64,000 bases of DNA from Gemmatimonas sp. (GCF_044344655.1 NZ_JBIJCN010000002.1:32174-96173), one strand, 5' to 3'; shown: positions 14,913 through 41,447, counted from the first letter of the stretch. The notes: generated by a model not told the origin, from the letters alone. Made by a program: numbers and translations.

Positions 14913-15824
14913 TCACGGGTTACGGACCGGCGCGTTGGGGGAAACCGGCGGGCGCACGATGCGGCGAGAGGCCGACGCACCGGCGTCACCCGACGTGCCA
15001 CCCGTCGAGGCCGGACGCACCTCGGCGTTCACTTCGTTGGTCAGCAGCATCGGCGCCTTGCCGTCGGTCACGATGACCTTGGCATTGGGGCTGCGCGCCA
15101 GCTCGCGGAACGCCTCGATCGACTGATAGCTGATGATGGCGGGCGAGAGCCCCTGCGCAATGATGGCCCACGAGTCGCGGATACCCTGCGCCTCGATCGT
15201 GCGGCGTTCGGCTTCCTGACGCTCACGATCGAGCACGAATTTCATCTGCTCCGAGCGCTGCTCCGCCTCGAGCTTTTCCTCGATGGCGCGCGCCAGGTCG
15301 GCCGGGAGGCGAATGCTCTTGAGGAGCACATTCTCCACGACGAAGCCACGCGGCGACAGCACTTCCATCATTTGCGTCTTGATGGCCTGCTCGATGCCCG
15401 TACGCGTTCCCGAGTGCATGTCCTTGGCCATGTAGCGCGCGGACACGTCGGCCGCCGCCGAACGGAAGACGGGGATGATCACGTCCTCCTCGTAGCTCAC
15501 ACCGCTGCTCTCGAGGATCTGCCGGATGTTCTCCGTCTTGGCGCGGTACAGAATCGAGACTTCGGCCGCCACGTTGAGCCCTTCCTTCGAGGGCATCTCG
15601 AGGCGCACTTCGCGGTTCACGACACGTGCAGGCACACGCAGCACGGAGTTGACGCCGGGGATGATGAACTGGGCGCCGGGCTGTAGCGGTCCGCTGGCGA
15701 TTCGCCCGAACGACGTCTTCACGCCGATTTCGTCCTGGCGGATGGTGGCGCACCCGGTAAGGACGGGGAGCGCGAGGAGCGCGCCGATCGCGGGGCGCGA
15801 CAGGGAGACAGACGAGATTCGCAT
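14913..15824 (-). CDS. SPFH/prohibitin (band-7) family lipoprotein
   Basis: Lipobox LTG|C; EIGVKTSFG, MPSKEGLNV, prohibitin-like AIEEKLEAEQ...AERRTIEAQG, NAKVIV. Confidence 0.9.
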   Translation of the reverse strand: MRISSVSLSRPAIGALLALPVLTGCATIRQDEIGVKTSFGRIASGPLQPGAQFIIPGVNSVLRVPARVVNREVRLEMPSKEGLNVAAEVSILYRAKTENIRQILESSGVSYEEDVIIPVFRSAAADVSARYMAKDMHSGTRTGIEQAIKTQMMEVLSPRGFVVENVLLKSIRLPADLARAIEEKLEAEQRSEQMKFVLDRERQEAERRTIEAQGIRDSWAIIAQGLSPAIISYQSIEAFRELARSPNAKVIVTDGKAPMLLTNEVNAEVRPASTGGTSGDAGASASRRIVRPPVSPNAPVRNP

Positions 15825-15919
15825 GGCTGCATCGGGATGTGCGAAGTGCGAGCGCTCCGCGTATTCCGCGATATCCTCAGGCTATACAGCCCGTGCGGTA
15901 CAGCCGACATCACGGTCGC

Positions 15920-16040
15920 GAAGGTCTCGCGCATCGCTCAGCGAGCGACCTGCCGGCCCGTGCGCCCTCGCACGCGCAGTGTTGACGAACCGGCAGCATC
16001 CGGCGGGCGCTCACCCGCCGGACGAGGCTACTCCCCTTCA
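15920..16040 (-). ncRNA. yybP-ykoY (Mn2+-sensing) riboswitch
   Basis: Minus strand: GAAGGGGAGUAGC; P2 UCCGGCGGG/CCCGCCGGA; P3 GCCGGU/GCCGGC with the UCGUCAACAC loop; P4 UCGCUC/GAGCGA; GCGAGACCUUC closing P1. A TATATT -10 (16047-16052) lies 6 nt upstream. Confidence 0.88.
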
Positions 16041-16220
16041 AGTGGCAATATAGGTCACCGCGACGACTTCGAGAAATTGATTGTCGCTATGGCATGCTTC
16101 GAGGAATTCGATGGAGTTCCGCGAAACCATTCAGTCCCGGAAAATATGCAGATCGTCCCTGCGAGGCCGACACCGAAGTGGCGACGCAACGCGACGGAGA
16201 GCCGCGCCGAGCGTCGTTCA

Positions 16221-28064: not shown

Positions 28065-28256
28065 ACGACCGGGGGCGCCCGGCGACCCCCGGAATCCGGG
28101 CGCCCAAAACCGGACTGTTACTTACCCGAGTCATTATCCGGTCCCAGTGGTCAAACTGTCTCTTGACTCCGTGGCCAGAAAGCCGGAAGTTGTTCTTCCC
28201 TTGCTCGCCCGCACGTGTGCGGCCGGGCAAGGGGAGATCGCCTGCTTTACGACATA

Positions 28257-28434
28257 GACACTGGTCACCGGCTTCTGCACCCAGAGGTCGGCGCTAAGAG
28301 GGAACTCCGGTGAGAACCCGGGGCGGCCCCGCCGCTGTAAGGGATGACGAGGAAGCTTCCCGCCACTGCGCCATGTCTGGCGCGGGAAGGCCGCTTCCGA
28401 GGACGAATCCCGAGCCAGAAGACCTGCCAGTGTC
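28257..28434 (+). ncRNA. Cobalamin (AdoCbl-type, full-length) riboswitch
   Basis: P1 GACACTGG/CCAGTGTC; AAGAGGGAA-CCGGTGAGAACCCGG-GCGGCCCCGCCGCTGTAA; GCCACTG...GGGAAGG; B12 box GAGCCAGAAGACCTGCC. Confidence 0.95.
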
Positions 28435-28643
28435 CGAGTCCGCGCGCCCCCTCGAGGGAGGGTTCGCCGGGGATTGCTGCGCCGCACCGTTTTCATGAGA
28501 TGCGCGCGGCCCCGTCTGGGCTCCCTGCGTTGTCTGCCGGGGGCCTTCGTGCTGCTCACGATCACGTGGGGGGCACGAGCGACGGGTGAACGTCCTCGGG
28601 TGGGTGTGCACACGCAGCTTTTATCCCCCTCTGGAGACACCGA

Positions 28644-40601: not shown

Positions 40602-41447
40602 ATGAACAACGTCAAGGTTTTCGTGCTCATGGCCGGCCTCACCGGCCTGGTCGTCGCCATCGGTCAGGCCATCGGTGGCGGCAGCGGCGCCATCATGGCG
40701 CTCATCCTGTCAGCGGGCATGAACCTCTTCATGTACTGGGGTTCGTCCAGCATGGTGCTGCGCTCGTACAACGCGCAGGTGGTCACGGCGGCACAGGCCC
40801 CGCAGCTGTACGGCATGGTGGACCGCCTGCGGCAGCGGGCGGGGCTCCCCATGCCCACCGTGGCCATCGCGCCCCACGACCAGCCCAACGCCTTCGCGAC
40901 CGGACGCAACCCGGAGAACTCGGTCGTGTGCGTGACCGAGGGGCTCCTGCGCATCATGTCGCAGGATGAGCTGGAGGGGGTGATTGCCCACGAACTCGCG
41001 CACATCAAGAATCGCGACATGCTGCTGCAGACGATGGCGGCCACCATGGCCGGTGCCATCAGCAACCTCGCGCAGATGGCGTTCTTCTTCGGCGGCCGCG
41101 GCGACGACGACGAAGGCGCCAATCCGGTGGTGATGATCGCGATGCTCATCATCGGCCCCATCGTGGCGATGGTACTGCAGTTCGCGATCAGCCGTCAGCG
41201 CGAGTTCAAGGCCGACGCGGTGGGGGCGGAGATCTGCGGCCGTCCGCTGTCGCTGGCCAACGCCCTGGTGCGACTCGAGAACACCGCGCGTCGCATCCCC
41301 ATGACGGTCTCGGCCAACGCCGCGCCGCTGGCGATCGTGAATCCGCTCGCCGCGTTCAGCATGCGCGGGATGAGCAAGTGGTTCTCCACGCACCCGCCCA
41401 CCGAGGAGCGCGTGGCGGCGCTCCAGGCCATCGCGGTCCGCGGGTAA
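40602..41447 (+). CDS. htpX: Zinc metalloprotease HtpX
   Basis: QPNAFATGRNPE, GVIAHELAHIKNRD (HExxH), ISRQREFKAD, FSTHPPTEER. Confidence 0.95.
   Translation: MNNVKVFVLMAGLTGLVVAIGQAIGGGSGAIMALILSAGMNLFMYWGSSSMVLRSYNAQVVTAAQAPQLYGMVDRLRQRAGLPMPTVAIAPHDQPNAFATGRNPENSVVCVTEGLLRIMSQDELEGVIAHELAHIKNRDMLLQTMAATMAGAISNLAQMAFFFGGRGDDDEGANPVVMIAMLIIGPIVAMVLQFAISRQREFKADAVGAEICGRPLSLANALVRLENTARRIPMTVSANAAPLAIVNPLAAFSMRGMSKWFSTHPPTEERVAALQAIAVRG

Follow-up and report, generated by a model that had tools for sequence, protein, structure and literature searches.

It is quite likely that the leader of an SPFH lipoprotein gene in Gemmatimonas sp. is a functional member of the yybP-ykoY (Mn2+) riboswitch class, one that would work as a Mn-ON attenuation switch and place the protein in a manganese-responsive envelope-proteostasis response. 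For this leader, we infer the ligand, the ON polarity and the transcription-attenuation output. The RNA class is already known; its target here, an SPFH gene, is unusual, conserved and lineage-specific. Both the leader and the gene are located in the window, i.e., the whole stretch of 64,000 nucleotides of Gemmatimonas DNA that was analyzed. On the minus strand, a gap of 396 nt extends from the end of a PBP1A-like gene (16221) to the SPFH ATG (15824). The following features were assigned to this gap and to the gene behind it:

16047-16052 (-): -10-like box TATATT, 7 nt 5' of P1, read directly from the sequence
15917-16042 (-): yybP-ykoY (Mn2+-type) riboswitch aptamer, a four-way junction (covariance model R1, covariation and reciprocal matches of model R2, see below)
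16035-16039 (-): P1 5' strand GAAGG, whose partner is CCUUC at 15920-15924 (covariation)
16027-16034 (-): 5' side of L1 and P1.2, GGAGUAGC, with the hallmark GGGGAGUAGC (conservation)
15997-16025 (-): P2 hairpin, with two-sided changes across homologs in 5/5 modelled pairs
15950-15996 (-): P3 (P3.1, L3 and P3.2), with the internal loop UUCGUCAACA / CGGG (covariation)
15980-15989 (-): 5' side of L3, UUCGUCAACA, including the A equivalent to the Mn-contacting A41
15931-15949 (-): P4 hairpin, GUCGCUC-GCU-GAGCGAUGC (individual folding of homologs)
15920-15930 (-): GCGAGACCUUC, which provides the P1.2 3' strand, the 3' side of L1, the P1 3' strand and the 5' arm of the alternative hairpin
15848-15930 (-): predicted terminator-like anti-P1 hairpin, which excludes P1, with the 3' arm CGCGGAGCGCUCGC at 15848-15861 (constrained folds)
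15841-15846 (-): CUUCGC, the weak counterpart of a U-tract, located 3' of the hairpin and also able to pair with GCGGAG in its 3' arm
14913-15824 (-): coding sequence of the SPFH/Band_7 prohibitin-like lipoprotein, 303 aa (Pfam Band_7 match)
15750-15761 (-): lipobox L22-T23-G24-C25 (LTGC, codons 22-25), matching the pattern [LVI][ASTG][GA]C

An earlier note on this DNA had described a complete four-way-junction aptamer on the minus strand of the gap, and all the segments listed there were found at their place, including the -10 box just before P1 (TATATT at 16052-16047). The spacing given in that note, 95 nt from the end of P1 to the SPFH ATG, was likewise confirmed, and no conserved ORF was detected between the aptamer and the SPFH start, where the note had seen no other credible ORF. 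The aptamer RNA has a GC content of 72% and long P2 and P3 helices.

Membership in the yybP-ykoY class

Related leaders were found in relatives with BLASTN, and six of them were used for a covariance model, R1. This model matched the window site with 103.5 bits (E 4.6e-25); across 201 genomes of Gemmatimonadales, it detected about 55 sites, which fell in 50 of these genomes. A second R1 match in the same genome as the window (L011, 21 bits) was discarded, as it was without the hallmark motifs (GGGAGUAG...GAGAC). With its six sequences, R1 did not match the E. coli mntP and alx leaders; it was too narrow and was replaced by R2, a covariance model made from the 43 Gemmatimonadales aptamers only, with no E. 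coli sequence, and run with filters off. R2 recognized both E. coli leaders, mntP with 37.2 bits (E 8e-8) and alx with 28.3 bits (E 1.2e-5), and these matches were the only significant ones in their loci and had the correct place and strand.

Among the 43 aligned sites, 92.4% of the cells in P1-P3 formed standard pairs, compared with 31-41% when the partners were slid, these counts being biased towards structure by an alignment that was fitted to the model. Two-sided changes were observed in 21 of 29 pairs across the 43 aptamers, and for every measure the observed value lay beyond all 500 shuffles. Such changes involved 5 of the 6 modelled pairs of P1 (e.g., GAAAG/CUUUC in L019, L026, L036 and L040), 8 of the 12 pairs of P3.1/L3 and 3 of the 4 pairs of P3.2. 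The compensatory change from GAAGG/CCUUC to GAAAG/CUUUC is visible in the raw sequences. P4 was left out of the covariance model because its length varies; when each sequence was folded alone, a hairpin of at least 4 bp was present at the P4 position in 40 of the 43 homologs. One aptamer upstream of htpX-terC (L050, G035:C1) has almost no P4, with ~8 nt between P3 and GCGAGACC, and appears to be a three-helix variant.

The loops that form the metal site, L1 (GGGGAGUAG ... GAGACC) and L3 (GUCAA), were near-invariant or better in the 43 aptamers and identical to those of E. coli mntP. GGGAGUAG was present in all 43, and the next nucleotide was C in 41 of them, as in E. coli mntP. The equivalent of A41, an A immediately 3' of GUC (of GCC in L016), was also found in 43/43. 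The UCGUCA flank, the 3' GCACGG and GCGAGAC were near-invariant, with exceptions in L016, L034, L006, L045 and L046. According to PMC11672702, A41, an adenosine of L3, is the single base with an inner-sphere contact to Mn2+. The hallmark segments and the paired P1-P4 claimed from the sequence of the window were thus recovered in the family, with loops near-invariant in 43 sequences, covariation in P1-P3 and P4 in 40 of 43. Because of the invariant loops, the covariation of P1, P2 and P3, the recognition of mntP and alx by R2 and the presence of TerC downstream in relatives, the assignment of the window RNA to the yybP-ykoY class is supported at the level of sequence.

A search with the Rfam 15 model of this class, RF00080 ("Manganese"; 177 positions, gathering score 45), had been proposed in the earlier note and came out negative. 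No match was found in the whole window at the gathering score or across the whole genome, nor in a 601-nt region even at E<=10. The model itself is insensitive. As a control, the validated E. coli mntP leader (L001 3462-3558) received 41.6 bits; since the same model places E. coli mntP below its own cut-off, the miss is weak evidence, and after this control we rejected the RF00080 null result as proof that the aptamer is absent. RF00080 was above the cut-off in only 2 of 14 control genomes, and its printed consensus contains neither the P1 closing helix nor the 3' GAGACC segment. Sub-threshold RF00080 matches were located at the exact position and strand of the aptamer in 4 of the 20 homologous loci scanned (32.3, 26.6, 26.2 and 22.8 bits; best E 4.5e-5). 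The Rfam 15 model under-detects high-GC yybP-ykoY members. The only Rfam match at gathering level in the window was a cobalamin riboswitch at 28245-28445 (+) (RF00174, 120 bits, E 1.6e-29).

Expression platform and proposed mechanism

A consensus promoter scan detected no sigma-70 site before the aptamer, because the -35 element is poor. A TAnnnT box precedes P1 by 8-15 nt in nearly all homologous leaders, and with this spacing the transcript probably starts at P1. SPFH-type leaders (L051-L080) also have a motif in common, AAnAATCAAT, which lies some 40-50 nt before P1, at about 16076-16110 (-) in the window. It is a clear inverted repeat in some genomes, e.g., CATCGAAATATTCGATG in L072, and may be a candidate operator for a protein and hence a second layer of control.

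In the minimum free energy fold of the window leader, the segment at 15920-15930 pairs with 15848-15861, and constrained folds gave -58 kcal/mol for the anti-P1 state. Fifteen SPFH-type leaders were folded, and in 13 of them the P1 3' strand, GCGAGACCUUCGC, has its complement further downstream, GCGRAG-nnn-CUCGC; folding of these 13 without the P1 5' strand yielded one long hairpin of -42 to -63 kcal/mol. In these models, P1 and the predicted anti-P1 hairpin were shown to be mutually exclusive. When the aptamer is closed, the released 3' arm and the conserved CUUCGC are predicted to fold as a small hairpin. The homologous long hairpin of htpX-terC leaders and most htpX leaders is followed by CUUUU(U), which makes it a canonical intrinsic terminator in competition with P1. 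In the SPFH leaders, the position after the hairpin reads (G/A)CUUCGC, and intrinsic termination is doubtful there because this sequence stands in place of a proper U-tract. CUUCGC is kept in almost all complete SPFH-type leaders aligned, and the same position is CUUUUUCG or CUUUCG in htpX-type leaders. Accessibility of the start codon (unpaired probability from -15 to +6) was about equal with the aptamer open or closed in a simple model, and simple translational masking was therefore dropped as unsupported.

We propose that transcription starts just after the TAnnnT -10 box, so that P1 would be the first helix made. In the absence of the metal, the P1 3' strand would pair with the downstream CGCGGAG..CUCGC to form the long terminator-like hairpin, and most transcripts would stop short of the SPFH gene. 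Mn2+ bound between L1 and L3 would hold P1 closed and block the hairpin, and SPFH would be expressed; as binding of Mn2+ would permit expression, the device would be an ON switch. The protein would then belong to an envelope-proteostasis response to manganese, along with TerC and the HtpX protease, which share the same aptamer in relatives. Candidates for the step at which the output is set are an intrinsic terminator of low efficiency, Rho and translation.

It is conceivable, although on balance unlikely, that the aptamer is genuine and that its output is not intrinsic antitermination but Rho-dependent termination, RNA stability or translation. The route would then be a C-rich stretch, conserved 3' of the hairpin (CUCGC-R-CUUCGCACAUCC), together with the alternative GCGRAG/CUUCGC hairpin. 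The hairpin of SPFH-type leaders lacks a U-tract, and yet CUUCGC is strongly conserved and pairs with the released 3' arm, which would fit such a route; however, CUUCGC may be a mere degenerate U-tract, since it is aligned with the CUUUCG or CUUUUUCG tract of sister leaders, and in these leaders the homologous hairpin is a canonical terminator. Dambach in 2015 reportedly found that the E. coli mntP and alx riboswitches act after transcription initiation and not by a simple terminator. These non-terminator routes would speak for the alternative, whereas the unchanged accessibility of the start codon in the simple model speaks against it.

Genes behind the aptamer and the physiological signal

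Genes downstream of the aptamer were tabulated for the 43 homologous aptamers of Gemmatimonadales. They were htpX-terC in about 18 of the 43 (the sister family), htpX alone in about 13 (from further Gemmatimonadaceae, or as a second copy within the genus of the window), the SPFH lipoprotein gene in 8 (8 genomes, all within this genus) and terC alone in 2; one aptamer was followed by a gene for a tandem Usp protein (L017) and one by the end of the contig. In L017 (G177:C3), the aptamer (1501-1609) precedes an ORF at 1638-2658 whose product has the universal stress domain in tandem (Pfam Usp x2, E 1.3e-32), a target that is not a transporter. As regards neighbors linked to Mn homeostasis, the window locus has SPFH instead, and aptamers of the same order precede htpX-terC (~18) and terC (2).

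The genome of the window also has an htpX gene, which is located in the window itself (40602-41438 (+), NCBIfam HtpX, 350 bits) and directly follows the preceding ORF. No Mn aptamer was detected before this gene or before terC (contig C51) of the same genome; in the congeners G008, G012, G110 and G175, the aptamer precedes htpX. In the assembly, which is 90% complete, the SPFH leader is the only copy of the aptamer, and no homolog of MntP was found.

These data bear on the nature of the signal. A physiological signal other than Mn2+, e.g., Ca2+ or alkaline pH, with SPFH in a different stress response, seems rather improbable. It would be in line with the S. pneumoniae mgtA member of the class, which responds to Ca2+ too (PMC11672702), and with the reported influence of pH on E. 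coli alx and mntP (PMC9603457). In addition, the genome offers no Mn-exporter context, because its TerC gene is without the aptamer and no MntP homolog was found. However, the metal-site nucleotides of L1 and L3, including the A41 equivalent, are invariant, and in relatives the same aptamer precedes TerC, a Mn-linked family.

Conservation and history of the SPFH link

Close SPFH orthologs, with 70-97% identity, numbered about 30, and the aptamer was located upstream in 18 of them; at least 19 distinct Gemmatimonas-type SPFH loci carry it, down to ~70% protein identity. None was detected by R2 near about 47 distant SPFH homologs from Bacteroidota, Myxococcota and others. The SPFH-linked aptamers form one clade. 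In the SPFH protein tree, the aptamer occurs in both main clades as well as in the branch that splits off first, and the 12 aptamer-less loci fall into four nested groups. For these reasons, the link between the aptamer and SPFH looks ancestral to the Gemmatimonas-type orthogroup, with at least four losses. The link can be dispensed with, since the aptamer has been lost or exchanged in four SPFH sub-lineages.

The earlier note had held against its own proposal the case that the association is unique to this genome, with transporters in the same position in relatives. The link proved conserved and not unique, as it extends to 8 genomes of the genus and to the 18 close orthologs; in sister lineages, the aptamer precedes htpX-terC, htpX or terC.

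Leaders of the aptamer-less SPFH orthologs contained no Rfam match and no R2 aptamer. Other conserved leader sequences were observed in L069, L074-L077 (about 1250-1500) and L059-L061. One conserved element of aptamer-less leaders is CATAGAGAGRATC...GCTTCT...CCTAG, followed by a hairpin before the RBS, and another is GAACCCGAGTAGAAGACTCGGCAAGGGAAC. Two further SPFH orthologs, L054 and L057, have apparently decayed aptamers. It is very hard to believe that the window aptamer is an evolutionary relic, copied with the promoter region and no longer regulating SPFH: the four sub-lineages without it and the copies in L054 and L057 would agree with such a history, but aptamer and platform are kept with compensatory changes in the distinct SPFH loci counted above, and invariant metal-site loops are not expected of a relic.

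The SPFH lipoprotein

The SPFH/prohibitin lipoprotein that the earlier note had placed downstream of the aptamer was readily recognized. It matched Pfam Band_7 (PF01145) with 98 bits (cut-off 23.6, E 8.9e-28) over residues 27-204. Its best relatives in PDB were prohibitins (E 4.9e-13), and the match to PHB1 covers residues 46-245, i.e., most of the protein and beyond the Pfam Band_7 stretch. We also considered HflK (TIGR01933 equivalog), and this identity was rejected, as the protein reached only 31.2 bits versus a cut-off of 159.4 and prohibitins were closer in PDB. The signal peptide, MRISSVSLSRPAIGALLALPV-LTGC, ends in the lipobox with Cys25 (pattern match). Among orthologs with a clear start, most signal peptides end in [LVAI][ASTG][GA]C, then ATIRQDE; a few have ATVRQDE or ATIQQDE instead after the Cys.

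Because of the lipobox, the SPFH domain would be located outside the cytoplasm, as in HflK/C, and we predict for the product a prohibitin-like scaffold that faces the periplasm and has a lipid anchor. As the gene converges on lon, it is monocistronic, and no protease gene adjoining it was found at the locus. In some Gemmatimonas genomes, a small signal-peptide protein is encoded 4 nt 3' of the SPFH gene (L013 2625-3129, L006 2849-3038). It had no Pfam match and may be a candidate co-transcribed partner of SPFH; it is missing in the window, where lon converges.

Relation to known systems and implications

The B. subtilis yybP and ykoY (meeY) Mn2+ riboswitches, which are transcriptional ON switches, share with the window RNA the four-helix aptamer and the GGGGAGUAG, GUCAA and GAGACC loops, and in both systems the 3' strand of P1 also serves as the 5' arm of a hairpin located downstream. 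The Gemmatimonadales relatives have a B. subtilis-like design with a U-tract before htpX-terC. The window leader differs in its target, an SPFH lipoprotein and not a TerC/YybP membrane protein, and in a hairpin without a proper U-tract. The E. coli mntP and alx leaders are both recognized by the Gemmatimonadales model R2, and the mntP loops align directly; they control, however, Mn exporters, are AT-richer than the window RNA and have other expression platforms. A41, known from crystal structures of L. lactis yoaB and of E. coli yybP-ykoY (Price et al. 2015, as cited in PMC11672702), has an invariant equivalent here.

HflK/C pairs with FtsH and prohibitins pair with m-AAA, both being cage-forming SPFH scaffolds. 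The window protein has the Band_7 domain in common with them and, like HflK/C, is predicted to face the periplasm. In contrast to these scaffolds, it is anchored by a lipobox cysteine and not by a transmembrane helix. The B. subtilis TerC proteins (MeeF/MeeY), one of which is riboswitch-controlled, co-purify with HtpX, FtsH, FloA and FloT, and FtsH becomes essential in their absence (PMC10550928). This interactome (HtpX, TerC, FloA/FloT) parallels the genes behind the Gemmatimonadales aptamer (HtpX, TerC, SPFH), which suggests a manganese-responsive envelope-proteostasis response. However, the flotillins FloA and FloT face the cytoplasm and are not orthologous to the window lipoprotein, so that the link is one of analogy. 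A role of SPFH in manganese-responsive envelope proteostasis in Gemmatimonas is, by this analogy, plausible. The idea that the lipoprotein organizes metal exporters or proteases is a speculation, to which the htpX-terC operons and the co-purification with TerC lend some support by analogy.

Reviews name exporters and TerC as targets of Mn riboswitches (including PMC11672702), and a literature search, with the gene tables of the primary 2015 papers outside its range, retrieved no paper that links yybP-ykoY with SPFH. Both agree with the statement in the earlier note that SPFH is not among the known targets of the class.

A broader reading, which we put forward tentatively and with more doubt than belief, is that the Mn riboswitch of Gemmatimonadales has been re-targeted from exporters to envelope quality control, i.e., to HtpX, TerC, the SPFH lipoprotein and, in one genome, Usp. 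If this is true, excess Mn2+ would do its main damage by mis-metalating or jamming membrane proteins and secreted proteins, the SPFH lipoprotein would assemble into a cage in the periplasm and act with a protease or TerC, and the SPFH gene would be the only riboswitch-controlled member of the set in its own genome. The link to SPFH, together with HtpX in sister lineages, points to quality control of membrane proteins in manganese stress, which agrees with the TerC secretosome model. In addition, the expression of a bacterial SPFH protein, from a family of mostly unknown functions, would have a defined ligand as its cue.
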